NCBI GenBank assembly: GCA_964538875.1
Contig: CAZIHO010000051.1
Coordinates: 1 to 22,883, forward strand
Source of the DNA: an uncultured Chromatiaceae bacterium
Lineage (GTDB): Bacteria > Pseudomonadota > Gammaproteobacteria > Chromatiales > Chromatiaceae
Reading direction: 5' to 3'
DNA: 22,883 nt
Positions 1,794 to 22,878 of this stretch are shown here, one piece after another; positions within the stretch are counted from its first letter, which is position 1; every line of letters begins with the position of its first letter. Under the pieces are notes generated by a model. The model was not told the DNA's origin. It worked only from the letters and a program-made list of their open reading frames with translations, and made no database searches. The translations under genes were made by a program, and so were the position numbers.

Positions 1794-2533
1794 ATAGTCT
1801 CCATCACCAGCCTGGTGAGCCAGCCACGTACCTGGACTATGTCCGGTAGCCGGTACTGGGCAATGGTCGGTTCGGGTCCGACTTTGATCGCGACGCCCCC
1901 CATACGACTGACTGCGGCGAAGGCAGGTTCATCGTTATCGTCGTCGCCGATGAACAGGGGCCGGCGCCCAGCGAATGGCGGTTCGCCCAGGTAAGAGGTG
2001 ATGGCAGTGCCCTTGTCGATCCCCGCCGGCTTGAGTTCGACGACCCGCTTGCCCGCTTGCAACTCGTAACCTGGACCCGCCTGCGCCATTATTTTGGCCA
2101 TAGACTCCTGGACATAGGCCGCTAAGTGGGGCTGACCGCGGTAGTGCAGGGCTAGGGTCAAGCCCTTATCTTCCAATAGCAGGCCAGGTTGCTGCGCCTG
2201 GACCTGTTGCAAGCGGGCCTGGAGTCGCGGCCAGACCGCCGGCCTGGCGGGGCTCCACACCCGCCCTTGGGAGTCACGGCGCTCCAGCCCATGCTGTCCC
2301 GCCATGGGAATGGCCAGGGTTCCCAGCCGGCTATCTAAATCTGCCAGGGAGCGGCCGCTGATCAACGCCAGCGCTCCTCCGGCCACCTGTTTCAGCCGCC
2401 CTAGCAAATCCAGCAGCGGCGCGTCGATTCGCACGGCGTCCGGCCTAGCGGCGATCTCGATCAGGGTGCCATCTAGGTCAAGGAAATAGGCCCAGTTCGA
2501 TTTGGGCGTGGGTGGAACGTTGGTGGGCGACAT
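1790..2533 (-). CDS. otsB: Trehalose-6-phosphate phosphatase (HAD family).
   Basis: HAD motif I 'FLDLDGTL', motif III lysine in 'KPAGIDKG' and motif IV 'LFIGDDDNDE' align with E. coli OtsB (FDLDGTL ... FIGDDLTDE). It lies 22 nt downstream of the otsA stop on the same strand. Confidence 0.9.
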   Translation of the reverse strand: MSPTNVPPTPKSNWAYFLDLDGTLIEIAARPDAVRIDAPLLDLLGRLKQVAGGALALISGRSLADLDSRLGTLAIPMAGQHGLERRDSQGRVWSPARPAVWPRLQARLQQVQAQQPGLLLEDKGLTLALHYRGQPHLAAYVQESMAKIMAQAGPGYELQAGKRVVELKPAGIDKGTAITSYLGEPPFAGRRPLFIGDDDNDEPAFAAVSRMGGVAIKVGPEPTIAQYRLPDIVQVRGWLTRLVMETI

Positions 2534-2555
2534 GGATAGTTGGTACCCCTGACCT

Positions 2556-4790
2556 TCATTTGGCCGGCGCCGCCGGTGTTAGCAACCGTCCCCGGCGACG
2601 CATCAGGGCCGCATCCAGCAGCATACGCCCGGCCCAGCGGTACACGTTGAATTCCATAACCAACGCTCGCATCAACTTCATCCGGTCCCGCTGCTCGGCC
2701 ACGGGCATGGTCATTGCCAGGTGCAAGGCGGCGGCGCATTGGTCCGCATCGTAGGGATTGACGATCAGGGCCTCCGGCAACTCCCTGGCAGCGCCAGTAA
2801 ACTGCGACAGGATCAGCACCCCCAATTCGTCATCATGGGCGGCCACATACTCCTTGGCGACCAGGTTCATGCCATCGTGGAGGCTGCTGACGAAACAGAA
2901 ATCCGCTGCCCGGTAGTATTCATACACCTGAACCGGCTGATGTTGCTCGGCTTTCAGGATGATGGGCGGCATACCGCCTTGGGCGAAGCGTGCGTTGATC
3001 TGTTGGGCCAGGGCCTCGACCCGGGCTTGATGATCTTGGTATTCACCGATCCGGGAGCGCGTCGGAGCGGCGATTTGGATGAAGCTAAAGCGGCCAATCC
3101 ACTCCGGGCGCAGCTCCAGCAGGCGCTCGATGGCCCGGAACCGTTCCACGATACCCTTGGTGTAATCGAGCCGATCCACGCCCACCCCTAGAAGGCAATC
3201 CGCGGGCAGTCCGTTTTGTGTGCGCAACAGCGGGCGGCAGGTCTCCAACGGCCTGGCCAAGCTGGCGTGTAGCGGCGGCCACTCGATGGAAATGGGATAA
3301 CGGCGCACTGCGGTCAGCTTGCCACCAAAGGAGACGGTGTGGGACTCACGATCCACCCGTGCTTCCAGACAGCGATCCACGGTATCCACAAAGTTGTTGC
3401 AATGGAACATGGTGTGGAACCCCAAGATGCTGCTGCCTAGCAAACCGTCCATGATCTCTGGGCCCCAGGGGCAAATGGCGAAGGACTCAGGATTGGGCCA
3501 GGGAATATGCCAGAAGGTGATAATGGTCGCCTCCGGCAGCCGCTCCCGGATCATGCGGGGCGCCAAGGCAAAATGGTAATCCTGAATCAGCACGATGGGA
3601 TCCGGGGTCTTGGCGGTGGCCACCACCGCGTCGGCGAAAATGCGGTTTACCTCGACGTAATAGGCCCAATCCTCTGACCGGAAGGTGGGCCGCACATGGG
3701 CAATGTGGCAGAGGGGCCACAACCCTTCATTTGAGAAACCATAATAATAACCAGTTTCCTGCTCCGGCGTCAGCCAGATTCGCCGCAGGCAATAGACCGG
3801 GTCATCCGGCGGAACCGCGACTTGGTCCCGTGCGTCCACGGTCTCCCGGTCAGCACTGCCGCTGCCGTGGGCGATCCAAACGCCGGAACACGCCCGCATT
3901 ACCGGCTCCATGGCTGTCACCAGGCCGCTGGCCGGACGGTGCACCTCGACCTGACCCTCCCGGCGCAGGTGAATATAGGGTTCCCGGTTAGACACCAAGA
4001 TAACGTCGTCGCCCCGCAATTCTCCCCGGAGAATGGCCCGCAAGGCCTCTGGGGTCCAGGTAATCTGGCTTTCATCCCGGGACCGGTAGCTCGATTCCAA
4101 TTCCCTCAACAACCGCTGCAGATCCCGGGCGATGGGCTGGAATTCGGGGGCGGGAGGAACCGCAGCGAGGCTGGCCTGGGGACGCCGGACCAGCCCCTCG
4201 CCACGAAGAATGGCGCGCATACCCGCAACCCAGCCGCGCCAAGACAACTGGGCGATCACCACGGTAATGAGTGACACCAGCAGGGTGACACCAAGAAACA
4301 CGTAAAACACATATTGCCGCGTCTCGGCGCTGCGCCGTCCGACGAAGCTCATGTCATGGACGATGACCAGTTGTGCCGCAGGTGCCGATGCCGTGGCCAT
4401 GGATTTAACGGCCAGGTGCAATAGGCCATGGGTATTCTCGAGGATTGGACGGCTTTGTTCACGCCAGCGCGACAGGTCGTTACAGTGAATCTCAGACGGC
4501 AATGACGCGGTCGCGATCATAGGGCCTTCGGGTCCAGCGCAATAAGCGAGGGCGAATAAGCGTTCATCCAGGGTGATATTGCTTAGAAACGCCGTGACCT
4601 TGGCCGGCGCCTGCGAGGCTAGCCACAAGGTGAGGGGTTCCCTGATCGCGTTGCTGATCAGATCAGCACGAATATCCAGATCGCGCTCGAACCAGTGCAA
4701 AGTCAACCGGTCTATCAGCGGTACCAGTCCGTACGCGACAAGGCCTAAGGCAAGGATCAAAGGCACAATGAATCGTAACGATATTCGCAT
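2556..4790 (-). CDS. otsA: Trehalose-6-phosphate synthase (GT20), 744 aa, with a ~255-aa N-terminal extension carrying two predicted TM helices.
   Basis: The C-terminal ~480 aa align with E. coli OtsA from '[11 protein letters not shown]' (E. coli 'RLVVVSNRIAPP') through '[15 protein letters not shown]' (E. coli '[17 protein letters not shown]'). The N-terminus has hydrophobic stretches '[20 protein letters not shown]' (aa 7-26) and '[23 protein letters not shown]' (aa ~160-183). A GGGAGGAGG-like RBS (ggaggagggg on the coding strand) lies just upstream of the ATG at 4790. Confidence 0.85.
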
Positions 4791-6630: not shown

Positions 6631-9165
6631 ATGCCAAGAGAAGACGATCGTCCGATGCGCGAAACGGAACTGGTGCTGCCCCCCGGCGTCTTTGCCTTCG
6701 TACTAGATAGCACTAAGGGTAATATAAATACCTATTGCGGCCCCATCAAGCAAAGCCTGAGTAATACCGACCAATTGGTCGTCTATAACGCCGATAGCCG
6801 CCGCTTCCAACCGGCGGCCAATTTCAGCCAGGCGATTCAGACCCATATCACCGCCGCTAAGGGGCACTACGTCATCCTGCAAAACCCGTCCCGGGATGGG
6901 CATCATCCCGAACCGGGCAAAGCGGAGATGTTGCCCCCGAATTTCCTCAAGACCGGGGAAACCGAGAACCTGCCTGGCCCCCAATCCTTTCCCCTCTGGC
7001 CCACCCAGACCGCTGAGGTGGTGTTGGGCCACCAATTGCGTTCTAACCAGTATCTATTGGTGCGGGTTTATGACGAGGAAGGCGCCCGGACCAATTGGAA
7101 CCAGGGCGTCATCAAGCTGGCGGAAACCGCCGGCGTCGGCAATGCGCCCGCCACCTCGGTGCTGGGCATCGATCCCACCGGCCTGTTCACCGGCCAATTG
7201 CTCATCATCATGGGGAATAAGGTCAGTTTCTATATTCCCCCGAGCGGCATCGAGGTCTTACCGGAGAGCGGCGGCACCGAGCCCCGCTATGTGAGGGACG
7301 CGGTGACCCTGGAGCGGCTGGAGTATTGCATCCTGTTGGATGAAAGCGGCCTCAAGCGTTACTTGATCGGCCCGGAAGTGGTCTTTCCCAAACCCACCGA
7401 GCAGTTCGTGATCCGGGACGGCAAGCGCAAATACCGGGCCTATGAATTGACCGACATCAGCGGCCTGCACATCAAGGTCATCGCCGACTACCAAGAACCG
7501 GACGGCGCCTGGCATAAGGCCGGGGACGAACTCTTCATCACCGGCGCCAGCCAGTCGATTTATTATCCCCGGTCGGAACACGCCATCATCAGCTATGGCG
7601 ACCGGGAACTCTATTACGCCATTGCCATTCCCTCCGGGGAAGCCCGCTACCTGATGAACCGTCGCACCGGCGACATTCGCTTGGTGCGGGGTCCGGCGGT
7701 CTATCTGCCCAATCCCATCGATGAGGTGGTGGTCAAGCGCATCCTGAGCGATAGCGAATGCGGCATGTATTTTCCCGGCAATGGCGCGGTGCTGGACTAC
7801 AACCGGTCCCTGCGGACCCGAGGTGCGGGTGGGGCGGCGCCCCTGGAAATGCCACCGGACGGCCCCCGCCCGCCCCCACTCCCGGCGGCGCCAGCCGTCG
7901 CCCTCCGGGAACTCGCTGGCCCTGGTGCCTTCGGCGACACCCTGCAACGGGTAGCGACCTACACTCCCCCACGCACCATCACGCTGGACACCAAGTTCGA
8001 GGGGGCGGTGACCATCGATGTCTGGTCCGGGTACGCGGTGCAGGTGGTGAATCGCCAAGGGGAACGCCGGGTGGTGACCGGCCCCCAAACGGTCTTGCTG
8101 GCCTATGACGAGATCCTGGAACCCCTGGCCCTGAGCATGGGCACTCCCAAGGACCCGGCCCGCACCCTCAAGACCGTCTATCTCCGGGTCCGCTCCAATG
8201 CGGTCAGCGACCGGGTCAGCGTCAAAACCCGGGACCTGGTCCCCCTCACCGTGCAGTTGAAGTACCTGGTGCGGTTCGACGGTGATCAAGCGAGCTGGTT
8301 CAACATCGACAACTACATCCAATACCTTTGCGACCATTTGCGCTCCCTGATCGGCAATCAGGTGCGGGCGATCGGGGTGCTGGAGTTCTATTTTTCCGCC
8401 GCCACCCTGCTGCGGGACCTGGTGTTGGGCGCCAAGGCCCAGGACGGCAGCCGGCCGTTGCGGCATTTTGCGGAAAACGGCATGACAGTCTATGACCTGG
8501 AGGTGATTAGCATCTCCATCGACGATGACCGCATCGACCAACTGCTGCACCAATCCCAGCAAGAGAATCTGCTCAACACCATCGAGTTGGAACGGCAACA
8601 GCGCCTGCATCTGCTCACTGCCGGCCAGGAACAGGCCAAGCGCCAGATCGAGCAGGAGCGGGCCACTACCCAGGCCCTCACTCAACAGCTGTTGCTGGAC
8701 ATTAGCGAAGGTCAGGACCGGCTGGCCATGGCGGAAATTCAATCCCAGACGAGCCGGGAACAGCAACGGGCCAACGGGACCCTGGAAGTACAGGCGATCG
8801 ACAGCCGCATCGCCGCAATGCGGCTGGCGGAGCGCCAGGCGCAGTTGGAAAGCGAGGCCCATTTTGCCCACCTGGCCCTGGAACAGCGCCTGCGGGAGAG
8901 CGATGCCCAGGCCCGCCACCTCACCGAGCAAATGGCGGCCATCCAACCTGCCCTGGTAGAGGCGCTGACCGCCATCGCCGCCACCGGCACCCTGCAATCC
9001 CTAGCGGAACATCTGGCGCCCCTGAGCCTGGTAAGGGACCAAAGTCTGGCGGCCACCCTGGAGCAGATGTTCCGGGGCACCCCCCTGGCGGGGCTGTTGG
9101 ACAACCTGCGTCAACTGGGCCAGGGACGGCTGTTGCAAGGAGAGGACCCGGCCGATGCCAGCTAG
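6631..9165 (+). CDS. Major vault protein (MVP)-like protein, 844 aa.
   Basis: The N-terminus 'ELVLPPGVFAFVLDSTKGNINTYCGPIKQSL...VVYNADSRRFQPA...KGHYVILQNPSRDG...GPQSFPLWPTQTAEVV' parallels human MVP '[32 protein letters not shown]...VLFAPMRMVTVPP...PRHYCTVANPVSRDAQG...AQDPFPLYPGEV'. Repeated ~55-aa MVP-repeat-like segments follow, and the Gln/Glu/Arg-rich C-terminal helical region resembles the MVP cap-helix. An AAGGGG RBS lies 8 nt upstream of the ATG. Confidence 0.85.
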   Translation: MPREDDRPMRETELVLPPGVFAFVLDSTKGNINTYCGPIKQSLSNTDQLVVYNADSRRFQPAANFSQAIQTHITAAKGHYVILQNPSRDGHHPEPGKAEMLPPNFLKTGETENLPGPQSFPLWPTQTAEVVLGHQLRSNQYLLVRVYDEEGARTNWNQGVIKLAETAGVGNAPATSVLGIDPTGLFTGQLLIIMGNKVSFYIPPSGIEVLPESGGTEPRYVRDAVTLERLEYCILLDESGLKRYLIGPEVVFPKPTEQFVIRDGKRKYRAYELTDISGLHIKVIADYQEPDGAWHKAGDELFITGASQSIYYPRSEHAIISYGDRELYYAIAIPSGEARYLMNRRTGDIRLVRGPAVYLPNPIDEVVVKRILSDSECGMYFPGNGAVLDYNRSLRTRGAGGAAPLEMPPDGPRPPPLPAAPAVALRELAGPGAFGDTLQRVATYTPPRTITLDTKFEGAVTIDVWSGYAVQVVNRQGERRVVTGPQTVLLAYDEILEPLALSMGTPKDPARTLKTVYLRVRSNAVSDRVSVKTRDLVPLTVQLKYLVRFDGDQASWFNIDNYIQYLCDHLRSLIGNQVRAIGVLEFYFSAATLLRDLVLGAKAQDGSRPLRHFAENGMTVYDLEVISISIDDDRIDQLLHQSQQENLLNTIELERQQRLHLLTAGQEQAKRQIEQERATTQALTQQLLLDISEGQDRLAMAEIQSQTSREQQRANGTLEVQAIDSRIAAMRLAERQAQLESEAHFAHLALEQRLRESDAQARHLTEQMAAIQPALVEALTAIAATGTLQSLAEHLAPLSLVRDQSLAATLEQMFRGTPLAGLLDNLRQLGQGRLLQGEDPADAS

Positions 9166-11782
9166 CCTTAGCACCCAGCCCTTCACGCTGATCCTGGCGG
9201 ACAGCCTCACCAACGACTTCATGGGCGGCGGGGCGTTCGAGCAAACCGGAGTACATATCGGCCAGCGGGACGTGGAGCGGCTGATGGGGGCCGGCAGCGC
9301 GGCCGGCAACGGCCCCCTGCCCACTTTCTTGAGTCAGGCGGTGGCAGCCCGCCGCCAAGGCCGGCCCATCGGCCTGATCCTGGTGCGGGATTGCCACGAC
9401 CCCAAAGACCCGGACCAACTGCCGGAACTGCTCCGCTATGGCCGTCATAACGTCCGGGGCGAACAAGGCGCCGCCTTTTTGCCCTTCCTCAAGCCCCTGC
9501 TAAGTGCGGCCGCCATCCTGGAAACCCGCTCCCTGTCCCTGCCCCTCAAATCTCTGCGGCGGGTGACGCGACGCCTGTTAGGACAGGATCTACTGACCCT
9601 GAACGGGGAACAGCGGCGGCTGCTACGCTGGGTGCTGGTGGGGTGCCACACGGACAAGCGGATCCTGGGCACCGCCAATCTGTTGCGCAACGTGTTGGAA
9701 TTTCCCAATGTCGCGGTCTGCCCCCATCTGGTGGGGAGCAGTAACCACGAGGCCCACCTGGCCAGCTTGCAGGTGGCTCTGCCGGATGCCTTGGTGCAGG
9801 TGTTTCCCGATCTCCGCGCCCTGCTGGGGTTCGCCGGCCTGGCGAAAAAGCCGTTCCGCCAGTTCGACTGCCGGGGCGCGGCGCTGGGGCCACCCGGCGT
9901 GATCCAGTCCTTGAACGCGGACCAGAGGCACATCCTGGAGCTGGCTTTTCTCCGTTGCTCCCAGGTGACCCTGCAACCTTTGAGCGGCGGATTTAGCGGC
10001 AGTCTGCTGTGGCTGGCGCGGCGCCAGATCGACGGCGTGGCGGGGGCGCCGGTGGTGGTCAAGATCGACCGGCATGGGGCTATGCAAAAGGAATTGGAAG
10101 GCTACGACCGGGTCAAGGCCATCTTTGGTAGTCAGGTGCCCAGCTTCGGTACGCCCATCTCGTCCGGCGGTCATACCGGCATCCTCATGGAACTGGCCTC
10201 CCGTTCCGGCACGCCCCACACCCTGCAATGGCTGTTTGAGCAGGCGGTGGAACAGCGCGACCCGGACCAATTCCTAGCCCCGCTCCGGGCCAGCCTGGAA
10301 TTGCTGCACCAGCGCCTGTACCGGCCCACCTTGCGCCGGTGCCGCTTCTCGCCCTGGCAGCGGCTCGGGCTGTCCGCGCCCCAGCAATGGGAGTGGCTCA
10401 GGGAGAATATCGGCCACATCACCAACGACGGCTGGCAAGGCGGCCCGATCCGGCTGACGCCGGATCTGGTGTTGGAGGACTTCACCGCCCTGTTCCAGCA
10501 ACTGGCCGCCGACTCCCATTGGCTGCCCGGCGCCCATTGCCTTGGCCATGGAGATCTGAACCTGGCCAACATCATCCTGGATGACCTGGCCAATGTCTGG
10601 TTCATCGACTGGACCCACGCCGGGTTGCTGCCCGTGGAATTGGATCTGGCCAAGCTGGAAAACGACATCAAGCTGGTGGTCAGCAAGGGGCTGGCCCACC
10701 AGGACCTGGGGGACCTCCTGATCCTGGAGCGTCTGCTGCTGGAACAGCGGCTACCCCTGCCCCTGGAGGAAGCGGCCAAGCGGTTGCCGGGGTTGGCCAG
10801 CGACCCGCACCTGGCCTTGGTTTACCAATCCGTGGCCGCCATCCGCCAGCGATACGCGGACCTGCATCCAGAGCAGGATGACACCCTGTATCAAATCGCC
10901 TTGCTGCGTTATGCCACCCATACCCTCAGTTTCGATGCCCGGCGCGGGCGGGGCGAGTGCAGCTTGGAGCAACTGCGACACGCCCTGGGCACCGTGCATC
11001 TGCTGGTGCAACAACTGGCTAGGGGCGATTTTCACCGGCTGACCCCCGCCGTGCGGCCCGACTCCTACCCGGACCGGCAACGGCTACCCCGGGAACTGGC
11101 ACCCTGGCCAGTGCCCTGTCCGGACTATCAGCCCCCCTTCCATGAGGACCCCATCCTGTCCCACAGCGACTGGGCTGATCCCCTGGACATGGACTGGGCG
11201 CCGCCGGATGACGCCGACCCTTGGCGGGACCCCCTGGGCCGTCCCCTCAATCCACGGGGCCGCACCGGCTTGGCGGGACGGGGGCTGCTGGGCCGCTGGG
11301 GCGCCAACCGGGCGGTGGATCCGGTTATCACCCGGATCAATCCCGGTAACGGCCGGCTGGAACTGCTGCTGGGCCGCCGTTGGGACACCGGCGAAAGCTC
11401 CCTGCCAGGCTGTATGCGGCTGGCGGGGGAAAGCGAGGCCCAGGCCCTGGTCCGCTGCCTGCGGCTCAAGGCCGGGATTTCCCTGCCCATGAAAGCGGGC
11501 AGCCGGGTCTACCGGGGGCCGGTGGACGATTTCCGGGACACGGACCACGCCTGGATCGAAAGCAGCACCTGGAGTTGGCATTTGACCGGCAAGGCGGCCC
11601 GGCGCCTGTACTTCCGGGGCGGCGGCGGTCTCGGCGAACTGGGCTGGACGGGCATCAGCCCCGAACTGCTGCGGAGCCTGTTCGCGGGCCACGCGGACCT
11701 GGTACGGTGCGCCCTGCGCTGGCGGGCCGCCCGCCGCGAGCCCGGCGCCGATCAGATGGAACAGCTTTTACGGGAGAGTTGA
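9155..11782 (+). CDS. Three-domain protein, 875 aa: N-terminal isochorismatase/cysteine-hydrolase-like domain, central APH/protein-kinase-like phosphotransferase domain, C-terminal NUDT9-type Nudix (ADP-ribose-binding/pyrophosphatase-like) domain.
   Basis: N-terminal domain: '[11 protein letters not shown]...[13 protein letters not shown]...[13 protein letters not shown]...[18 protein letters not shown]' follows the isochorismatase/PncA pattern (VIDxQNDF ... HCVxGTxGAxF ... VVGIATDxCV). Middle domain: '[30 protein letters not shown]' is the HGD catalytic loop plus the DFG-equivalent of APH/choline-kinase-fold enzymes. C-terminal domain: '[29 protein letters not shown]' and '[25 protein letters not shown]' closely match human NUDT9 ('[29 protein letters not shown]', '[25 protein letters not shown]'). 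The start overlaps the MVP stop by 11 nt, with an AGGAGA RBS upstream. Confidence 0.8.
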   Translation: [875 protein letters not shown]

Positions 11783-11789
11783 CCTGACC

Positions 11790-12353
11790 TTGGAACGAAC
11801 CTCCACCACCCACCCCATCCGCATCGACTGGGTGTCCCTGGGCGGCCGGGGCCGCATCGGCATGACCTTCTGTCCCGGCAAGGTCCAGGACGACGCCTGG
11901 ACCGGCCGCTGGCGCCGGGATCTAGGCACCGATCTGCTGGCCATCCGCCGCTGGGGGTGCCGCCTGCTGCTGTCCCTGATCGAGGAACCGGAATACCTGG
12001 AATTAGGCGTTCCAAATCTGGGAGCAGAGGCCCAGCGCTACGGCTTGGCCTGGCAGCCGCTGCCCATCCGGGATCGATGCGCCCCGGACCAGCGTTTCGA
12101 GGCGGCCTGGCCCCAGCTATGGCCACAGGTGCAAGAGGTATTAGAGCAGCGGGGAGACCTGGTGCTGCACTGCAAAGGCGGACTGGGACGCACCGGAACC
12201 CTGGCCGCCTGCCTGCTGGTCAGTTTCGGCGAGTCACCGGCCAGCGCCCTGGGCCGGGTGCGTCTGGCCCGTCCGGGAACGGTGGAAACCCCGGCCCAGG
12301 AAGCCTATGTGCGGGCTTGGCCCGCCAGGTGGGCAAGTCTGGGCCAAAAATAA
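11790..12353 (+). CDS. CDKN3/KAP-like dual-specificity protein phosphatase (CX5R active site), 187 aa, TTG start.
   Basis: Active-site loop 'LHCKGGLGRTGTLAACLLVS' matches the CX5R signature (HCxxGxGR[ST]G). It is especially close to human CDKN3 'IHCYGGLGRSCLVAACLLLY'. A GGGAGAG RBS lies 11 nt upstream of the TTG, and the gene begins 7 nt after the previous stop. Confidence 0.7.
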   Translation: MERTSTTHPIRIDWVSLGGRGRIGMTFCPGKVQDDAWTGRWRRDLGTDLLAIRRWGCRLLLSLIEEPEYLELGVPNLGAEAQRYGLAWQPLPIRDRCAPDQRFEAAWPQLWPQVQEVLEQRGDLVLHCKGGLGRTGTLAACLLVSFGESPASALGRVRLARPGTVETPAQEAYVRAWPARWASLGQK

Positions 12354-12388
12354 GTCAGGCCCATCCTGGATGCGCCGGGATCAGACCA

Positions 12389-12690
12389 GATCCACCCGGC
12401 TGCCGTTCCATTGGACCGCCCCGGTCCCGGCCCTCGTACACCCGGGAGCCTGGCGCACGGCTGCCAATCAGTACCCATGTCCCAGCGGTTGGGATAGGGT
12501 TTCCAGGCGCCTTCGATGCCGCTGGTGGTGGCGCAACCCCCCAGGCCAGACCTGCTCACCATCTCCAAACTGCCCGGCGATGCTGTTACCCGCATCATCA
12601 GCCGGCACTATGCCCACCTGTGCCACAACACCCTGAAAGCTGCCGTCACCAATCGGCCCAGCTTGGGGCATCAGGCCGAAACCAAAAGGA
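12389..12690 (-). pseudogene. katG: Catalase-peroxidase (katG) gene fragment, internally deleted and frameshifted.
   Basis: DNA is ~88% identical to two separate parts of the intact katG in this window. Segment 12389-12480 matches katG 17925-18025 (C-terminal lobe, 'DMGTDWQP...'). Segment 12472-12560 matches katG 19018-19095 (N-terminal lobe, '[11 protein letters not shown]...WDMG'). The two are joined at a shared 'cccatgtcc' (DMG) junction. An 8-nt indel ('tgccccgg') and further indels break the frame. Confidence 0.65.
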
Positions 12691-12788
12691 AGCCAGACCC
12701 ACGGTCTGCACGTGCAAGCGCAGACGTGCCCTGCAAGGGGATGGGCGCGGAGCGGGAACGCGCTGGCGGGAGTGGCATCCGACGACGG

Positions 12789-13070
12789 ATAGGAAATCCA
12801 ACCGGCCCAGGAAACCATCCCTTTTTGTTGTTTATGATCAGATAGTTAGCGAGCACCCGGATGTAGGTTTAGTAGGCTGGAGGCACCTGCCAAAGCCTCC
12901 GGTAAGAATCTGGCGGCAGGTTTTTAGCGGTTGGGAAGCAGACGGGGAACCGCTTGCGGAATCTAACGCAAGCTCAATCCAGCTTCGCACCAGGTGGCCT
13001 CACAGAACTCTCGGTTAGTATGCCGGTGCCTCGGCTGCGGAACCGCTTACCAACTGCCGGTCTGGTCGAA
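12789..13070. repeat. 282-bp repeat element, copy 1 (no terminal inverted repeats; probable non-autonomous mobile element).
   Basis: Direct sequence comparison shows ~93% identity to 14198-14480 over the full length, in the same orientation. Contains conserved hairpins ('ctggaggc-acctgccaaa-gcctccgg', 'gcttgcg-gaatctaa-cgcaagc'). Confidence 0.85.
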
Positions 13071-13121
13071 TTGGCCGACGACTCGGCCGAGGCCGTGTTT
13101 GCCAGGATCAAGGGGCGGTGA
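13071..13121 (+). pseudogene. 3'-terminal remnant (~16 codons) of an antitoxin gene (TIGR02574-like 'addiction module component'), truncated by the upstream repeat.
   Basis: Frame reads '...LVELADDSAEAVFARIKGR*', with TGA overlapping the GTG start of the downstream ParE-like gene (GTGA). The '...IPAEEVFARLRAR'-type C-terminus is typical of antitoxins paired with the RFPY-type RelE/ParE toxins. The match to the repeat consensus ends at exactly 13070. Confidence 0.35.
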
Positions 13122-13412
13122 GGATTCGCGTCCTCTCCCGCGCCGAGGAAGAATTTGTTGAAGCGGTCAAGATACAACAATGAGCGTCCCAGACTTGGCC
13201 ACGAGTACATTGAGGAGGTGCAGGCCGTCTTCGACCGCATTCATGCCTTCCCCGACCCATGCCCGATCTTTTCCGTCCGTGCGCGTCGCTGCCTCGTCAG
13301 GCGTTTCCCGTATCCTATCCTCTACCAAGTCCGCGCCGACCGCATCCTCGTTCTCGCCATCATGCACCTCAAGCGTGACCCCAATGCCTGGCGCCAACGG
13401 GCAACCAACTGA
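13118..13412 (+). pseudogene. RelE/ParE-family toxin gene (~98 codons) with a +1 frameshift near 13171.
   Basis: N-terminal frame: 'VRIRVLSRAEEEFVEAVK', then premature stop at 13181. The rest is in the -2 frame: 'YNNERPRLGHEYIEEVQAVFDRIHAFPDP...VRRFPYPILYQVRADRILVLAIMHLKRDPNAWRQR'. Together they match the ~97-aa RelE/ParE toxins ('YRIRVLPRAE..L.EI..YY......LG..FL.EV......I...P........VRRAPVRRFPYGVFYRV.GD.VVVLAVYHTRRDP..W'). A single extra 'a' in 'aag A tac aac' creates the shift. Confidence 0.6.
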
Positions 13413-13631
13413 GCCGTCTCGTATCGCAGCACCGATAACTTCGGTTGATCGTTCCCGCACGGGAAGCGACTCTTGGGATTGGAGCTTATGGATACTGCTC
13501 CGCCCGCTTCACCCGCTTGTAGAGATCCTTCTCACGGGGTTCCAAGGGCGTAGCCGGGCAGGGGTTGAGGACCTCCACCCTGCGGTTGGCGTTGTACTGG
13601 ACTGGACCACCACCCGCGGGGCGGGTCTACC

Positions 13632-14108
13632 CTATGGCTTCTTCAGCGGATCGTTGGCGACCTTGGGGTCCAGGTAATCGATCAGCGCCACGAGGCCGCC
13701 CTTCAAGGCGTAGACGTTACTGAAGCCGATGTCCCGCAGGGCCACGGCGATCAGGGTGCAGCGCAGTCCCTGCTGGCAAACTACCAGGACCTTCTTGTCG
13801 GTGGGGATCCGCGCGAGATTGTCCGGTTGAAACACCTCGTTCATCTGCATGGACAAGGTATCCGGGTTACCGATACCGAGCACGCGGCGTTCCGCTGGCG
13901 TACGCACATCCAGTATCACCACGGACTCGCCGGCCTTGATCCAGTTGACCAGCGTTTCCGGGGGTATCCTGGCCAGGGCCTTGGGGGTATTGGCATCGGC
14001 GAAGGGGGCGAACAGCCCCTCGTACTGTTTGGCCTTGGTCGCGTCATAGGCACCGGCCGTGCCCATGAGCAGCATCAGCAGGGGCAGCATGAACAGGCGC
14101 CATTTCAT
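13632..14108 (-). CDS. Periplasmic single-domain rhodanese (sulfurtransferase), 158 aa, with signal peptide.
   Basis: N-terminal signal peptide 'MKWRLFMLPLLMLLMGTAGA'. Rhodanese active-site loop 'VVCQQGLRCTLIAVALRDIGFSNVYALKGG' (Cys in the CxxGxR loop). A GAGGAG RBS lies 7 nt upstream. Confidence 0.8.
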   Translation of the reverse strand: MKWRLFMLPLLMLLMGTAGAYDATKAKQYEGLFAPFADANTPKALARIPPETLVNWIKAGESVVILDVRTPAERRVLGIGNPDTLSMQMNEVFQPDNLARIPTDKKVLVVCQQGLRCTLIAVALRDIGFSNVYALKGGLVALIDYLDPKVANDPLKKP

Positions 14109-14197
14109 CTCGTTTCTCCTCAGTGAGCGGAATCAATCATCCGTAATTTTTGGCTATACCCGCCGGGGCAGGCACTTGCCATGATTTTTCGCAACAA

Positions 14198-14480
14198 ATA
14201 GGAAATCCAACCGGCCCAGGAAACCATCCCTTATGTTTCGTTTATGATCAGATACTTAGCGAGCACCCGGATGTAGGTTTAGTAGGCTGGAGGCACCTAC
14301 CAAAGCCTCTGGCAAGAATCTGGCGGCAGGCTTTTAGCGGTTGGGAGGCAGACGGGGAACCGCTTGCGGAATCTAACGCAAGCTCAATCCAGCTTCGCAC
14401 CAGGTGGCCTCACAGAGCTCTCGGTTAGTATGCCGGTGCCTCGGCTGAGGGACCGCTTACCAACTGACGGTCTGGTCAAA
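14198..14480. repeat. 282-bp repeat element, copy 2.
   Basis: ~93% identical to 12789-13070 in the same orientation. It lies immediately 3' of the IS91-family transposase C-terminal remnant on the minus strand. Confidence 0.85.
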
Positions 14481-14639
14481 CGGGAAGTCATGCTGCACTT
14501 CCCTGTGCAGCACCCTTCGGGCGGCCTAGGGCCGTGCAAACCGGCTTTCCTGCCGGTTGTTCAGGTTCAGGCTGGGCCAGGGGATCAAATGACGGCAAGG
14601 CTTGCGCGCCTGTCGCTGGTTGTCCCTCGCTTTCCTCCC

Positions 14640-14886
14640 ACCAAATAGGTGGCCCCCTGACCGGGGAGACCTTATGCGGATCGGTGGGCTGGCCGATGTG
14701 CTTCAGGATGCGGAGGACCGTTGAACCCTGGGGAACGAAGGCGATAATCCGCAGGTCAGCCGAGCAGTTCGGACAGGTGAGCGGCACCGACTCGTACAGA
14801 CGGGCCAAGAGAACGGCCCAGAGATACCGGGCCGGAGAGCGCCAGCACCCTCGTCGGCTAAGGAACTTAACTGCCCCGCTGACCAA
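14640..14886 (-). mobile_element. IS91-family (HUH rolling-circle) transposase, C-terminal remnant only.
   Basis: 'YLWAVLLARLYESVPLTCPNCSADLRIIAFVPQGSTVLRILKHIGQPTDPHKVSPVRGPP' matches the conserved C-terminus of IS91/IS801-type transposases ('LLARVFE.DVL.CP.CGG.MRIIAFIED..VI.KIL.HLGL......PP'). There is no upstream catalytic HUH/Y2 part. The ORF abuts the low-GC island. Confidence 0.55.
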
Positions 14887-15004
14887 ATGGGCGACTCGGC
14901 TCCCATGAGCGTCTGGCTGTCCAAAAAGTCCTGCGCCAGATCGCTGCTTATGGCGGTGACATCCCGAAGGAATTGATCGTCTAATTGCAAGTAGAAAGTC
15001 AATA

Positions 15005-15035
15005 GCGCGGACAAATGTCCGCGCCGTTTTTCTTA
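15005..15035. terminator. Stem-loop terminator-like hairpin immediately after the GT2 gene stop, possibly bidirectional.
   Basis: 'GCGCGGACA-aat-TGTCCGCGC' is followed on the + strand by 'CGTTTTTCTT' and on the - strand by 'TATTGACTTTCT'. It starts directly after the TGA of the 15036-16517 gene. Confidence 0.5.
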
Positions 15036-16517
15036 TCAGGGAAGTCGTGGAGTTATGGTAATGGAGGAAACAGGCACTCCAAGCAATCTTTTATCTTTAG
15101 GGACAAGCCAGGGCTCGCAAGTTAATGCAAAACGGGTTGGTGCATCTTCGTTTACCTGAAACGAAATCCTTCGCGGAGCGCGTTCCTGCAAAACTGGCAT
15201 TGGCTTCTCGTTGATATAAAATTTTAAATTCTCTATAGGCCGAATAGCCATTAACCAGTCAATCTCCAGATCATAATTACCCGGCACCAGGGAAATTTCT
15301 ATCATTGCAACGGGTTCGCTCCACCTAAATCTTTTGCCCTGCCATTCTTCAGAAGCATAAAAGCCCCCAAAAGGGTAAGAGCGCGCTTCATCCGCAGTCC
15401 ATCGTAGGGATGAAGTGGCTGCTGAAGGCTTTTCCTCAATATCGAAAGCGAAGCGAACTCTTTCAAGCTTAACCGTCGCATCGATCAGCTGCAAAAATTG
15501 TGTGTGTAGATAAGATTTTCCGAACCGCAAATTGAGCAAAAGGGTTAAGAGCCATCGTTTAACTTGAAATCGAAGCCAGGCATGGGTCAGGGATGTTCTC
15601 TTTAATGTTTCAAATGGAAAACTTAATCTAAGTAACATCAAGCCGCGTGCAAATATCTCACGAGGGCTCAAACATCTTCGGAAAGACTTCGAATGCGAAT
15701 TGGATGACAGCCTAAATGCCCTGTCATATAATCTCGAATTCCATCGATAGAAATTCAGCCACTCGAGCGGGTCTGGAAAATAAGAGCGGCTTTCATCATC
15801 TTTATATTTTGAAAGGTATGTCATTTCCCCACGGGCAAAATCTTCCGAAAATTTAATTAACTCTTTTATTTCTCCGATATAATAATGATGCACTTGGGCT
15901 TCTGGTACATACCCGATTTGATATCCATTTTGGTGCATTCGGGCAGCTAAATGCCATTCAGCAAAGTGACCAAGTTCGGGGTTAAATCCGCCTGCCTTAT
16001 GGTAATTTCCTGCACGCACTACAAAACATTGATCTAATATTCTCCTCCAAGGACATTCATTCATACCATAAAGGAGATCGGCTTCATACATATCGGCTTC
16101 GATCACAGACAGGCGATTGTGCGTTATACGAATAGATTGGCAGGAAAACCCTGCCCAGTCCGGATGTTCATCAATCGCTTTATCTGCTACGGACAAAATA
16201 TTTCGATCTGGCAAAACATGAGATTCGGTGAAAAACAATATTTCACCTTGGGCTTGTCGGGCGCCAAATGCACATAAAGCCATGTCGTGAGGCTCATCAA
16301 AGAGCAACAATCGATCATATTCACTCAATAGGGTCTTGAAATATGCAATTGTCTTTAAATCTAATGAGAATCGGCACCCAACAGCAACGACTTCAAATTG
16401 TTCGCGCAGGTAATCTTGCTCTTTAACCCAACGGCGTAGACATTCTTCACTTTGCCCACGATGGAACTCTAATGGAATAATGATCGAAAAACGAAAGGAC
16501 GGTTTTTTTTCAGCCAT
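15036..16517 (-). CDS. Family-2-like (GT-A fold) glycosyltransferase with a ~250-aa C-terminal domain of unknown function, 493 aa, low GC.
   Basis: N-terminus 'FSIIIPLE' and 'AQGEILFFTESHVLPD' match the GT2 start and DxD region. '...VRAGNYHKAGGFNPELGHFAEWHLAARMHQNGYQIGYVPEAQVHH' matches the GT2 'GGF.E......ED.DL..R....G..I.Y.P.A.V.H' region. Local GC (~45%) is far below the flanking DNA. It is 33 nt downstream of the sulfotransferase gene on the same strand. Confidence 0.65.
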   Translation of the reverse strand: MAEKKPSFRFSIIIPLEFHRGQSEECLRRWVKEQDYLREQFEVVAVGCRFSLDLKTIAYFKTLLSEYDRLLLFDEPHDMALCAFGARQAQGEILFFTESHVLPDRNILSVADKAIDEHPDWAGFSCQSIRITHNRLSVIEADMYEADLLYGMNECPWRRILDQCFVVRAGNYHKAGGFNPELGHFAEWHLAARMHQNGYQIGYVPEAQVHHYYIGEIKELIKFSEDFARGEMTYLSKYKDDESRSYFPDPLEWLNFYRWNSRLYDRAFRLSSNSHSKSFRRCLSPREIFARGLMLLRLSFPFETLKRTSLTHAWLRFQVKRWLLTLLLNLRFGKSYLHTQFLQLIDATVKLERVRFAFDIEEKPSAATSSLRWTADEARSYPFGGFYASEEWQGKRFRWSEPVAMIEISLVPGNYDLEIDWLMAIRPIENLKFYINEKPMPVLQERAPRRISFQVNEDAPTRFALTCEPWLVPKDKRLLGVPVSSITITPRLP

Positions 16518-16550
16518 AATAAAATTCTATTGCTGTTTGAGCGCAATGCT

Positions 16551-17579
16551 CTATACAGACTCCACTATCTGCATATTACGGACGCCCAAAATAAGCGGAC
16601 GGGTATCGCCATTGGGCAGCACAGGGATGGTGGCCTGCTCCACTGCTTCAAGGATAAGTTCATTCTCGCCAACAGAGACCGGCACACTTACTGCTACAGC
16701 ACCCGGCTGGACAGCGAGTATAACGCTCCAATTTCCTGATGTTACACGAAGATGCCGTTCAACATGCGCATCGAAACTGGGGCCTGGGATGGCATCAAAC
16801 ATCAAACGGATTTCCCCATTAAATGCCGTATAAACATCTAAGTGAGTTGCGGCTCCGCCGATCCAAAAAAAAGGTAAGTTATCTAATGTTTCCAATCCGT
16901 TTGGGTTGATAACGGATAGCACCTGTAATGGCAGATTGGTCTCGGCGGTCCCATCGGCATACCCGGCTGGCAATGAATATCCAAATTCTTCACAAAAATC
17001 AACCAATGAACGGCGCAAACGGGCTGGGAACGTGTTCAGGTATTTAAAAAGTACCGGGTTCTTTTTCCATTTTTCGATCGAGTCTGAAAATATCCGAATT
17101 CCTGCTCGGTTTTCACTAAAAGTATGAGCGACGGCAAGGTCGAAGTGTTTTGACAATTGTGTCTGAACAACATCTGGTTTGGCGATCAATTCTTCATACT
17201 TCAAAATAAACACTTTCGGGTTCGGCTGTTTCTTGCGCAGGGTATGCCAGGCATCATATTCCATCATCCAACGATCGAACGTAATATGAAATCTGCGCAA
17301 ATGCTTAGTTAACGGATGTGTACTGGTCAAGACATCAAACGGATGACGCACGCAATAGATTAGCCCTATATCATCGGGTAGAGACGCAAGGGTTCGCCAA
17401 CATTCGCCGGTTCGTTTGATGACAACATTACTTTCAGGGCAGAAAATTTTGGAAAAGCTTGAAAAAGGGGCTTCACCATATGCGCCTTCCGTGTATACAT
17501 AGGTATCTTCAAAACACCCCATTAGATCCCGGATCAAAGTCGTTCCGCTTCTTCCGCAACCAGCAATAAAACTCTTCAT
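16551..17579 (-). CDS. Sulfotransferase-family protein (Sulfotransfer_3-like) with an extra C-terminal domain, 342 aa, low GC.
   Basis: PAPS 5'-phosphosulfate-binding loop 'IAGCGRSGTTLIRDLM' (consensus GxxRSGTT). 3'-phosphate-binding region 'IYCVRHPFDVLTS' (RDPRD-type). AT-rich upstream region. Co-oriented with the GT2 gene. Confidence 0.7.
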   Translation of the reverse strand: MKSFIAGCGRSGTTLIRDLMGCFEDTYVYTEGAYGEAPFSSFSKIFCPESNVVIKRTGECWRTLASLPDDIGLIYCVRHPFDVLTSTHPLTKHLRRFHITFDRWMMEYDAWHTLRKKQPNPKVFILKYEELIAKPDVVQTQLSKHFDLAVAHTFSENRAGIRIFSDSIEKWKKNPVLFKYLNTFPARLRRSLVDFCEEFGYSLPAGYADGTAETNLPLQVLSVINPNGLETLDNLPFFWIGGAATHLDVYTAFNGEIRLMFDAIPGPSFDAHVERHLRVTSGNWSVILAVQPGAVAVSVPVSVGENELILEAVEQATIPVLPNGDTRPLILGVRNMQIVESV

Positions 17580-17747
17580 GGACCCTTCCAGGCGGAAATT
17601 TATATCTTATCATCAACAGCGAGTATATCAGGTTGTATAAGGATAAAGCGATCATGCCACCTTATCTATTGAAAATAGCCAACGAATTTCTGAGAGCATT
17701 CATAGTATCAGATACTTTTCAACCTGCTAATACCATTTGAATGAGAA

Positions 17748-17772
17748 GCGGGCCGGCACCTGCCGGCCCGCT
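17748..17772 (-). terminator. Rho-independent terminator of katG.
   Basis: The perfect hairpin 'GCGGGCCGGCA-ggt-GCCGGCCCGC' begins 12 nt after the katG stop (minus-strand sense). It is followed by 'TTCTCATTCAAAT'. Confidence 0.6.
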
Positions 17773-17783
17773 AAACGCCTCGA

Positions 17784-20063
<2,280 letters not shown>

Positions 20064-20112: not shown

Positions 20113-22878
20113 TTAGGACGCCGCTAGATTCCAGCCCCGGCGCTGGGCCAGCTCAATGAGCAGCGTGCGGGCGCGGGCGAAGTCCATGTTGGCGACCGCA
20201 GCCCCGGCAAGGGCCAGCTCCGCCTCCACCTCGGTACCCCGGACCAGGGTTTGCAGGTCCCGGAACCGGGCCACGGCGTTGAATCTCTGTTGTTCCAGCA
20301 GGGGCAGGGACTCCCGGAGCAGTGCCTCGACCCGCGCCACATCCAGGGTCCGGGGCGCCGCGACGGGTTCCCGCCGCTGCTGGGCGGTGCGTTCCGGCAG
20401 CCAATGGGCCAATAGCTCGCGCAATGCCGCCCACACCACCGGCTTGGCCAGCACGCCATCCATGCCCACGTCCAGGGCCCGTTGGCGGCTGTCGTCAAAC
20501 ACATCCGCCGTCAGGGCGATGATGGGGAGGCGTGGGCGCTGGTGGGCCTGTTCCCAGCGGCGGATTTGCTGGACCGCCCCATAGCCGTCCATGGCCGGCA
20601 TGCGCAGGTCCATGAGCACCAGATCCACCGGCTCGCCGCGGCGGATGATGTCCAGGCCCTGTTGCCCATCCTCGGCCTCGATGACCGATAAATCCAGCTT
20701 GGTCAGCATGGTGCGGATCACCTCGCGATTCGAGGCCGAGTCATCCACCGCCAGCACCCGGCCCACCAGCCGGGCAAACTCCTCTGAACCCGCAGCCTCG
20801 GCATTCCATTCGGGCTGGCGCTGATCTTCACCCGCGCCCACCGGTTCCAGGCGCACCCGGAACCAAAACCGGGACCCGTCGTTCACCCGGCTCTCCAACC
20901 CAACCTCGCCGCCCATTAGTTCCGCCAGGCTGCGGACGATGGACAGCCCCAGACCCGTGCCGCCGAAGCGCTGCGTCATGGCACCGCTCGCCTGGGCGAA
21001 GGGCCGGAACAGGCTCGCTTGTTTGTCTTGCGGCACCCCCACGCCGGAATCCGCCACCGAGAACTCCAGCAGGGCCGCCTCCCCCGCCCGGCTGAGTTCC
21101 CGTCCCTCGACCCGGATCTCGCCGTCGCTGGAAAACTTGATGGCGTTATTGACCAGATTGGACAGCATTTGCCGCAGCCGGTGGGGATCGCCCCGGTAGC
21201 GTTGCGCTGGCGGCCCGGACCAGGTCGAACACAACCCCAGCTCCTTGATCTGGACCACCGGCAAGAACAGGCGGGTCACCTGTTGCAGCAGTTGGCTGGG
21301 ATCGAAATCCGTGTATTCCAGGGTCATCCGGCCCGCTTCCACCTTGGACAAATCCAGGATGTCGTTGAGCAGGGTGAGCAGGGTCTCGCCGGCGTGCAGG
21401 ATCATCTGGGCGTGGTCCAGGCGTTCCTGTTTGCTGACTTGCCGCCCCAGCAGCAACTGGGCCATGCCCAGGATGGCGTTCATGGGCGTGCGGATCTCAT
21501 GGCTCATGGTGGCCAGAAAGCTGCTTTTAGCCCGGTTGGCGGCCTCGGCCTGATCCTTGGCCTCCGCCAGTTCCGCCTCGTAGCGCCTGCGCTCGGTGAT
21601 GTCCACATGGGTGCCCAGGGCACGCAGGGGACGGCCTGCGGCGTCCCGCTGCACCGTCCGCCCCCGGCCCAGGATCCAGCGGTAGCCGCCGTCCTTGGCC
21701 CTCAGCCGGTATTCCGCCTCGAAGGGACCGGGTCCAGCCAACGCCTGACCGACCCGCGCCACCGTGGACTCCCGGTCATCGGGATGCAGCAGGTCGAGCC
21801 ACAGGCTATCCGGGTCCGGACCTAACTCGCCGGACTGGTAGCCCAGCATTTGGAAGTAGGCCGGATTACAGTAGGCCTGGTCGCTATCCATGCGCCAGTC
21901 CCATAGACCGTCCTGGGAGGCCTCCATGGCCAGGCGAAAGCGCTCCTCGCTGGCCGCCAAGGCTTCTTCCAGGCGCCGGCGTTCCGAGATGTCTTCAATC
22001 AAGACCAGGTGACGGGGACTCTCACCCCGCTCCGCCGTCACCGGCGCGATGGTTATACGGATCCAGACCGCCGTGCCGTCCGGGTGCAGATACTGCTTGT
22101 CCATCTGGAAACTAGCGATTTCTCCGGCGTCCAGGCGCGCCATCTGGTCCAGTTCGTCTTGCGCGCCGTCGGGATGGGTGAGTGGCATCCAGTCGATGCG
22201 GGTCATCTCGGCGCGGGAGCGGCCGGCGATGGCGGCAAAGCGATCATTGACCTCCTGGATCCGGCCAGTCAGGGAATCGATGAGGGCGATTCCTAGGGGC
22301 GCCTGTTCAAACATGGTGCGGAACCGGGCCTCGGAACGCGCCACCCGCTCCAGCAGTTCCCGCAATTCGGCCTGGGCCGCCACCAATTCCTGGGTCCGGT
22401 CCGCCACCTTACGCTCCAGGTTGGCGTTGAGGTCCCGGATCGCCTCCTCCATGGCCTGGCGCTCGGAGATGTCGACCAAGATGCAGTGGGTGCGCAGGAA
22501 GCGGCCCTGGTCGTCGCGCTGGACGCGCCCGGCGAACAGAACCGTCAGTGGCGTGCCGTCACGGCGGCACAGCGTGACCTCCCCGTTCAGGCCGAGGTTG
22601 GCCTTGAAGCGCTCGAAATTGGCGTCAAACCGGTCCCGGAGCGAAATGTCCCAGTAATCCGCGAACGATAGGCCCAACAAGTCCCCGGGCTTGGCGAAGC
22701 CGAGCAGGTCGGCCATCTTTTGGTTGGCGTCTAGCCAGCGGCCCTGCCCGTCAATGGACTGATAGGCAATGGGCAGGTGCTCGAACAGTTCCCGGAAGCG
22801 GCGTTCGCTGTCACGCAGGTTGTGTTCGGCCTGCTTGCGCCCGGTGATGTCCTGCATCAAACCTTCCACGCCGGTCAC
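20113..22878 (-). CDS. Hybrid sensor histidine kinase (multi-PAS - HisKA - HATPase_c - REC - Hpt), N-terminus probably outside the window.
   Basis: At least three PAS-like segments are present. H-box 'FLATMSHEIRTPMNAILGMAQLL'. G-boxes 'DSGVGVP...GGTGLGLSIVRSL'. Receiver 'RVLAVDDSASNREVIRTML...LVLMDLRMPAMDGY'. A C-terminal ~100 aa has Hpt-like character. The ORF is open to the window edge. Confidence 0.9.
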   Translation of the reverse strand: MTGVEGLMQDITGRKQAEHNLRDSERRFRELFEHLPIAYQSIDGQGRWLDANQKMADLLGFAKPGDLLGLSFADYWDISLRDRFDANFERFKANLGLNGEVTLCRRDGTPLTVLFAGRVQRDDQGRFLRTHCILVDISERQAMEEAIRDLNANLERKVADRTQELVAAQAELRELLERVARSEARFRTMFEQAPLGIALIDSLTGRIQEVNDRFAAIAGRSRAEMTRIDWMPLTHPDGAQDELDQMARLDAGEIASFQMDKQYLHPDGTAVWIRITIAPVTAERGESPRHLVLIEDISERRRLEEALAASEERFRLAMEASQDGLWDWRMDSDQAYCNPAYFQMLGYQSGELGPDPDSLWLDLLHPDDRESTVARVGQALAGPGPFEAEYRLRAKDGGYRWILGRGRTVQRDAAGRPLRALGTHVDITERRRYEAELAEAKDQAEAANRAKSSFLATMSHEIRTPMNAILGMAQLLLGRQVSKQERLDHAQMILHAGETLLTLLNDILDLSKVEAGRMTLEYTDFDPSQLLQQVTRLFLPVVQIKELGLCSTWSGPPAQRYRGDPHRLRQMLSNLVNNAIKFSSDGEIRVEGRELSRAGEAALLEFSVADSGVGVPQDKQASLFRPFAQASGAMTQRFGGTGLGLSIVRSLAELMGGEVGLESRVNDGSRFWFRVRLEPVGAGEDQRQPEWNAEAAGSEEFARLVGRVLAVDDSASNREVIRTMLTKLDLSVIEAEDGQQGLDIIRRGEPVDLVLMDLRMPAMDGYGAVQQIRRWEQAHQRPRLPIIALTADVFDDSRQRALDVGMDGVLAKPVVWAALRELLAHWLPERTAQQRREPVAAPRTLDVARVEALLRESLPLLEQQRFNAVARFRDLQTLVRGTEVEAELALAGAAVANMDFARARTLLIELAQRRGWNLAAS

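Follow-up and report, generated by a model that had tools for sequence, protein, structure and literature searches.

KatG, the catalase-peroxidase, has a two-lobe, two-domain architecture (PMC3523812). In the window analysed here, which is the whole of a 22,883-bp contig from an NCBI metagenome-assembled genome, a short stretch of DNA resembling the N-terminal lobe of katG runs directly into DNA resembling the C-terminal lobe. What is this stretch, and how did two separate parts of one gene come to be joined? The sequence-only reading had placed the feature at 12389-12690 and explained it as the dead remnant of an old second katG, the two lobes of which had been fused by recombination between two ancient internal repeats of the gene.

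The surroundings of the feature are as follows. Trehalose genes (GH15, otsB, otsA) occupy 6-4790 on the minus strand. On the plus strand, genes for an MVP-like protein (6631-9165; Vault_3 and MVP_shoulder, 844 aa), a TCAD9/NUDT9_N protein (9155-11782; 875 aa) and a dual-specificity phosphatase (11790-12353; 187 aa) form an operon (6631-12353) of the 'ternary complex' conflict-system type. Homologues of the phosphatase at 80 metagenome loci are at most 57% identical to it. Beyond the operon and the feature under study, a 285-bp direct repeat, here called R, is present in two 94% identical copies (12789-13070 and 14198-14480). These flank a 1.1-kb segment that carries a rhodanese gene (13632-14108, minus) and a 165-aa ORF (13180-13677, plus). 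R contains several hairpins and has no Rfam match; several Logan contigs terminate within it, at the position equivalent to 12967/12968 of the window. At 14488-14566 (plus) Rfam gives a weak hit to anti-hemB (Burkholderia RNA 7), with 21.5 bits where the gathering score is 49.5 (E 0.045); this hit is probably due to chance. The G+C content of the window is 62-68% except in a block on the minus strand (15036-17579), where the G+C fraction is 0.42-0.46 as opposed to 0.62-0.68 elsewhere. This block holds genes for a 493-aa protein with no Pfam match (15036-16517, minus) and a sulfotransferase (16551-17579, minus), is probably foreign DNA, and adjoins the katG 3' end in all three haplotypes (3/3) described below. 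The intact resident katG follows (17784-19970, minus; 728 aa, matching the Pfam peroxidase family PF00141 in two stretches). Its best named relatives, at about 80% identity, come from Rhodocyclaceae, Propionivibrio and Burkholderiales MAGs, which allows no more than a guess at a betaproteobacterial host. Upstream of katG lies a PAS histidine kinase gene (20113-22878, minus) truncated at the contig end; in a related contig (L089, 5179-9858) the full gene for this PAS/histidine-kinase/receiver protein encodes 1559 aa.

The katG-derived DNA was found to span 168 bp (12385-12552) on the minus strand, the same strand as the intact gene, and to consist of two blocks. The N-lobe block (12470-12552, read from 12552 to 12470) corresponds to KatG codons 292-320. 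It matches positions 19013-19096 of the intact gene (read from 19096 to 19013) at 75 of 84 positions (89%; blastn of 12200-12900 against the katG region, E 9e-23), and 22 of its 26 encoded residues are identical to KatG 293-318 (tblastn). The C-lobe block (12385-12491, read from 12491 to 12385) corresponds to codons 646-685 and matches 17917-18033 (read from 18033 to 17917) at 99 of 118 positions (blastn, E 3e-26), which is 84% counting gaps and 93% of the aligned bases; the alignment has 12 gap columns at three gapped sites. Both blocks are collinear with the katG lobes, and the local alignment score of 72 is far above that of shuffled sequences (13.2 +/- 1.7; none of 200 shuffles reached 72). 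Read as protein, KatG 293-318 is fused to DMGTDWQP...VDLV, equivalent to KatG 650-685 (tblastn E 5e-13).

The fragment is clearly dead as a katG gene. A codon-level alignment revealed a 2-nt and an 8-nt deletion in the C-lobe block, each shifting the frame, and a TGA immediately after ...VDLV. In place of a complete two-lobe ORF of about 720-750 aa with an N-lobe haem pocket, just codons 292-320 and 646-685 are left, and these do not form an uninterrupted reading frame; a further 1-nt deletion is found in a second allele (see below). The 8-nt gap, already pointed out in the sequence-only reading, is real and reflects a tandem 8-mer, GCCCCGGT GCCCCGGT, that has shrunk by one unit; the tandem stands at 17950-17965 (minus) in the intact katG, and the relic retains a single unit at 12418-12425. 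The reading also located the feature at the boundary of the MVP operon, and the relic does start 32 bp past the stop codon of the operon.

At its other end the feature had been drawn too long. We found no katG similarity on either side of the relic, and from 12553 to 12790, which takes in the supposed katG DNA at 12553-12690, the score against katG (13) was reached by 55 of 200 shuffles. A 29-nt match to katG at 12640-12668 (72% identical) was rejected as an extension of the relic, being chance-level and 42 nt out of line. Instead, 12549-12696 on the plus strand (DLLTISKLPGDAVTRIISRHYAHLCHNTLKAAVTNRPSLGHQAETK) is a 3' relic of a tyrosine-recombinase gene of the phage-integrase family, comprising the last ~48 codons. 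The peptide encoded by 12552-12700 had no match in Pfam or in a PDB sequence search, and a word-indexed protein search gave no candidates; the relic was identified only by an exhaustive HMMER search. A phmmer search of 1.84 billion proteins (representatives) gave 18 hits at E <= 1e-3 (e.g., P0123 at 5.7e-10). Full-length hits (P0134, P0135 and P0136; 270-439 aa) match at their extreme C-termini, all scanned hits carry Pfam PF00589 (Phage_integrase), and the motif ...DLLTISKLLGHADTRITSRHYAHL... is visible in the hit sequences. What remains is homologous to the C-terminal catalytic-tyrosine segment; a complete tyrosine-recombinase catalytic domain is absent and Pfam is empty for the ORF itself. 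The integrase relic adjoins the katG relic on the opposite strand, and the four bases GACC (12549-12552) are common to both. This join is readily explained, because a single deletion across two divergently oriented neighbours would produce it.

The junction between the lobes was analysed base by base. The intact gene carries a 10-bp direct repeat, GGACATGGGC, on the minus strand: one copy is at 19017-19026 in the N lobe (codons D316-M317-G318) and the other, 1002 nt away, at 18015-18024 in the C lobe (codons D650-M651-G652). Relative to the intact gene, the relic has lost, in frame, 1002 nt or 334 codons between these two sites. One copy of the repeat is left, with 9 of 10 bases preserved: the junction CCCATGTCC at 12474-12482 on the minus strand (reverse complement GGACATGGG, Asp-Met-Gly), placed by a three-way alignment and exact-pattern positions. 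With the resident gene as proxy for the lost copy, an exact repeat is thus present at both end points and a single copy in the product. The two lobes are indeed joined directly at Asp-Met-Gly codons present in both, just as the sequence-only reading had it.

That reading had ascribed the join to the ancient duplication of the lobes. Unequal homologous recombination, in register, between the two lobes would yield a single chimeric lobe, and such an origin would suit an in-frame deletion with its junction in a tripeptide found in both lobes, in a protein whose lobes are homologous overall (hhalign probability 97%; two-domain KatG, PMC3523812). However, the two sites have only 10 bp in common. 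The 30-60 nt flanking them are 20-35% identical, which is background and leaves homologous recombination without a substrate; extended DNA similarity between the lobe repeats was not found at the junction, as is expected of a microhomology scar. Direct repeats of at least 10 bp are no more numerous in the intact katG than expected by chance (8, compared to 7.6 +/- 3.0 in codon-shuffled versions). Nor is DMG a motif shared by the lobes, as had been proposed, since it is unconserved at either site among KatG relatives: the N lobe has DMG or DNG, and in the C lobe DM is followed by G, R, S, N, A or K.

The two DMG sites are also out of register. To align the lobes, pea ascorbate peroxidase (APX), a single-lobe enzyme, was used as a bridge (sequence identical to PDB 1APX_A). 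Its segment IFDNSYFTELLT pairs with an 11-residue segment of the N lobe and a 12-residue segment of the C lobe. Through this bridge N-lobe D316MG318 corresponds to DNS of APX and to T641PD643 of the C lobe, while C-lobe D650 corresponds to F324 of the N lobe. The sites are therefore 8-9 residues apart in the lobe register, according to a bridge whose C-lobe segment is weak alone (conditional E 0.12) but collinear with neighbours at 1.5e-05 and 0.011. By the same bridge the junction does not connect structurally equivalent positions of the lobes, and an in-register event would have removed about 325-326 codons, not 334. Other approaches to the register were less informative. hhalign pairs the C-lobe DMG with E282MG284 of the N lobe rather than with D316MG318, in a shallow alignment of low confidence in the relevant segment; the Smith-Waterman score of the two lobe segments was reached by 69 of 500 shuffles; Pfam profile coordinates are too coarse; and an AlphaFold2 model was poor (pLDDT 44.7). 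On this evidence we consider recombination between the lobes very unlikely. Because of the short match, the background flanks, the chance-level repeats, the unconserved tripeptide and the shifted register, the junction is, judged from its sequence, a microhomology scar of the RecA-independent slippage or template-switching type between short nearby direct repeats. RecA-independent deletion between such repeats is an established process (PMC7145654).

Where did the copy come from, and when? The C-lobe block is 84-85% identical to the resident katG alleles and at most 70% identical to katG at 80 GTDB loci and in the nearest relatives (the proteins of which are 84% identical), so that the resident gene is the closest relative of the relic among all katG DNA examined. 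This argues that the copy arose within the lineage of the resident gene. The exact resident KatG is not on record, and its nearest relatives (84% aa identity) are encoded by single-copy genes in unrelated contexts. There is no conserved synteny across the 80 GTDB katG loci, and no katG lies near the phosphatase homologues at the 80 metagenome loci. Neither these loci, nor the nearest relatives, nor any haplotype or assembly searched contains a longer or intact second katG copy.

The same fragment was recovered from independent assemblies, which fall into three haplotypes (A, B and C). An assembly artefact was ruled out: the junction recurs in Logan and JGI assemblies made independently of each other from over a dozen runs. 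Haplotype A is that of the window, and its Logan contigs (L001-L003, L006-L008) carry an identical relic. Haplotype B comprises a JGI contig (L091) and Logan contigs (L004, L176-L181) with a B-type relic allele; one of them, L176, spans the entire region at 98-99% identity, with one copy of R and without the rhodanese segment. The A and B relics agree in the fusion junction and in both the 2-nt and the 8-nt deletion. B has, in addition, substitutions of its own and a 1-nt deletion at the junction that alters the downstream frame (L004, L176-L180). Since the fusion junction and the indels are common to both alleles, the relic predates the split of A and B, and the fusion is older than the separation of at least two strain lineages. 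The alleles differ by about 7-8% in the relic, compared to 1-2% in the flanking genes, as expected in the absence of constraint. Several Logan contigs (L003, L004, L178-L180) end within about one base of 12529-12530, inside the relic. At this point 25 nt of the relic are exactly the same as in the resident katG (GCGCCTTCGATGCCGCTGGTGGTGG), and for this reason it may break short-read assemblies there.

Haplotype C (ENA contigs L089 and L090) is 98.5% identical over katG and its neighbours and lacks the katG relic, the integrase relic, the MVP-like operon and also the 3' end of the phosphatase gene. Its order is R, then the 12-bp repeat CCGGCCCAGGAA, a 110-bp piece of the phosphatase gene, a gene for a 72-aa protein and a type I restriction-modification methylase (hsdM) gene. 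A blastn comparison of L089/L090 with the window, combined with pattern positions, showed that haplotype C departs from the window at the left copy of this repeat (12291-12302); other copies are located at 12802-12813 and 14211-14222. The absence of the relic is consistent with its loss by deletion between copies of the 12-bp repeat, which would be a second microhomology deletion at the locus. As in haplotype B, one copy of R is present and the 1.1-kb rhodanese segment is absent. At 15750-17683 of L089 only the 110-bp phosphatase relic is left, with the 72-aa gene and hsdM in place of the operon, a replacement that suggests defence-island turnover.

Two relic alleles and three resident alleles were used to polarise the fixed substitutions. 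The fixed differences amount to ~9 substitutions in ~178 nt (5%) plus two shared indels. The nine substitutions are distributed 4:2:3 over the codon positions (6 non-synonymous, 3 synonymous); they look neutral and give no sign of a long functional life, although with n = 9 this is weak evidence alone. The sequence-only reading had considered the relic an old second copy. It is old relative to the strain splits, but it is not an ancient paralog, as it is nested within the resident katG lineage.

The record of haplotypes also bears on whether there ever was a full second gene. The fragment could be filler DNA, copied in two short stretches from the resident katG at a distance of 5.4 kb by serial microhomology-mediated template switches during the repair of a break or stalled fork, with a switch at the 10-bp repeat. 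Every junction seen has microhomology of 4, 10 or 12 bp, the source gene lies close by and has the same orientation, and no assembly contains a longer version of the copy. Yet a full copy shortened by simple deletion would give the identical end product with fewer unusual steps; the ~5% fixed divergence and the shared indels make the event old, so that missing intermediates say little; and one deletion over two complete neighbours explains naturally why katG and integrase stand divergently. Filler DNA is accordingly an unlikely, though not a negligible, origin. If true, the fragment would document break-induced or fork-switching repair in nature, as a footprint at population level in an uncultured bacterium, and with the neighbouring 4-bp and 12-bp junctions the locus would be a hotspot of such events.

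The integrase raises the question of site-specific integration. Relic and intact katG form direct repeats around 12553-17783, a region with the integrase relic and the low-GC block (0.42-0.46), and the relic might be the host's own 3' part of katG, displaced to the far end when an island with an integrase inserted site-specifically into katG and brought a replacement 3' part. We regard this attachment-site duplication as quite improbable. The relic stops at codon 685 of 728 and so lacks the last 43 codons expected of such a duplication; it is not the kind of direct repeat that contains the target gene's 3' end and delimits an island. The duplicated part would have to start upstream of codon 292 (>1.3 kb), far above the usual length of an attachment site, and the integrase adjoins the fragment rather than the restored gene. 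The resident KatG shows no mosaic structure beyond a generally lower conservation of the C lobe, and the low-GC block remains beside katG in 3/3 haplotypes.

Might the relic have been kept for a function? An ATG-initiated ORF of 97 codons crosses it on the minus strand (from 12598 to 12305), and the relic persists in two lineages; it could in principle encode a small protein, or serve as a regulatory or antisense RNA or as a terminator for the phosphatase operon. Against this, the junction frameshift in the B allele means that the ORF product is not conserved, and no reading frame is shared between the relic alleles. No other stretch of the region diverges as fast as the relic, and a third lineage is wholly without it. 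No promoter-like site was detected in 12200-13200, terminator-like sites do not exceed their frequency in shuffled sequence, and scans for Rfam families and tRNAs, run on the window and on 12350-14600, gave no relevant RNA and no Rfam match for the relic. Retention for a function is thus extremely improbable, and the relic appears to be functionless. Gene callers in other assemblies place ORFs across the relics (12305-12845, both strands), for example two proteins in the frame of the integrase relic, P0121 (109 aa) and P0122 (105 aa), and a minus-strand ORF of 57 aa over the katG relic. Such ORFs are very likely to be spurious, which is of use for the annotation of the several assemblies that carry them.

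Taken as a whole, the fragment is likely to be the relic of a second katG copy of the resident-katG lineage that was trimmed by microhomology deletions in a decaying, integrase-associated and fast-changing island. We infer a former full-length second copy, the order of events and the enzymology of the deletions. The copy would have been produced by duplication in this genome or brought in by a mobile element whose source was a very close relative. It would have occupied the minus strand, with the phosphatase gene on one side and a tyrosine-recombinase gene of divergent orientation on the other. Trimming would have proceeded by RecA-independent template switching or slippage between very short direct repeats. 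The first step would be the in-frame internal deletion of 1002 nt between the 10-bp repeats, which by chance are Asp-Met-Gly codons in both lobes. Through a second deletion katG would have lost codons 1-291 and the integrase gene most of its length, together with the intergenic DNA, leaving the two genes joined at GACC. Codons 686-728 would then have been lost at the border with the phosphatase gene, followed by one unit of the tandem 8-mer and by 2 nt elsewhere. Afterwards the relic would have drifted neutrally, and it presumably does nothing today.

In itself the relic is of little importance, but it is a clean example of the erosion of a gene copy via deletions between chance repeats of 4-12 bp. 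The shortening of the katG and integrase relics by short chance repeats is ordinary bacterial genome decay. It also calls for caution, as an in-frame junction at a motif common to two homologous domains need not stem from their homology. The three haplotypes can serve as strain markers for a variable island with either the MVP-like/TCAD9/phosphatase conflict system or a type I restriction-modification system.

How does the locus compare with known systems? Catalase-peroxidase HPI is a class I member of the peroxidase-catalase superfamily with PF00141 twice. Of such a gene the relic retains 26 codons from the haem-bearing N-terminal lobe and ~36 from the C-terminal lobe, which is cofactor-free, in DNA 84-89% identical to the resident gene. 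Unlike a katG gene, it covers only ~8% of the length, lacks codons 1-291 (with all catalytic and haem-binding residues), 319-649 and 686-728, and is frameshifted twice and stop-terminated, making it a pseudogene fragment. Integrase relics (PF00589) are known from the edges of decayed islands. Here ~48 codons are left and neither an attachment site nor island boundaries can be defined; as in those cases, 12549-12696 keeps the C-terminal ...LLTISKL.G......RHYAHL... with the catalytic-tyrosine motif region and sits amid strain-to-strain gene turnover. Unequal crossing-over between internal gene repeats gives a similar product, the first repeat unit joined in frame to the second, but differs in that the relic has no extended DNA homology and a junction 8-9 residues out of register. 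A further parallel is RecA-independent deletion between short direct repeats (replication slippage, or template switching in post-replication gaps). In this case the process is deduced from scars only, and the progenitor repeats are read in the paralogous resident gene. The likeness lies in the one repeat copy kept, the intervening DNA gone, the non-homologous flanks and the repeats ~1 kb apart, and it extends to the tandem 8-mer reduced to one unit and to the 12-bp repeat junction in the neighbouring strain.
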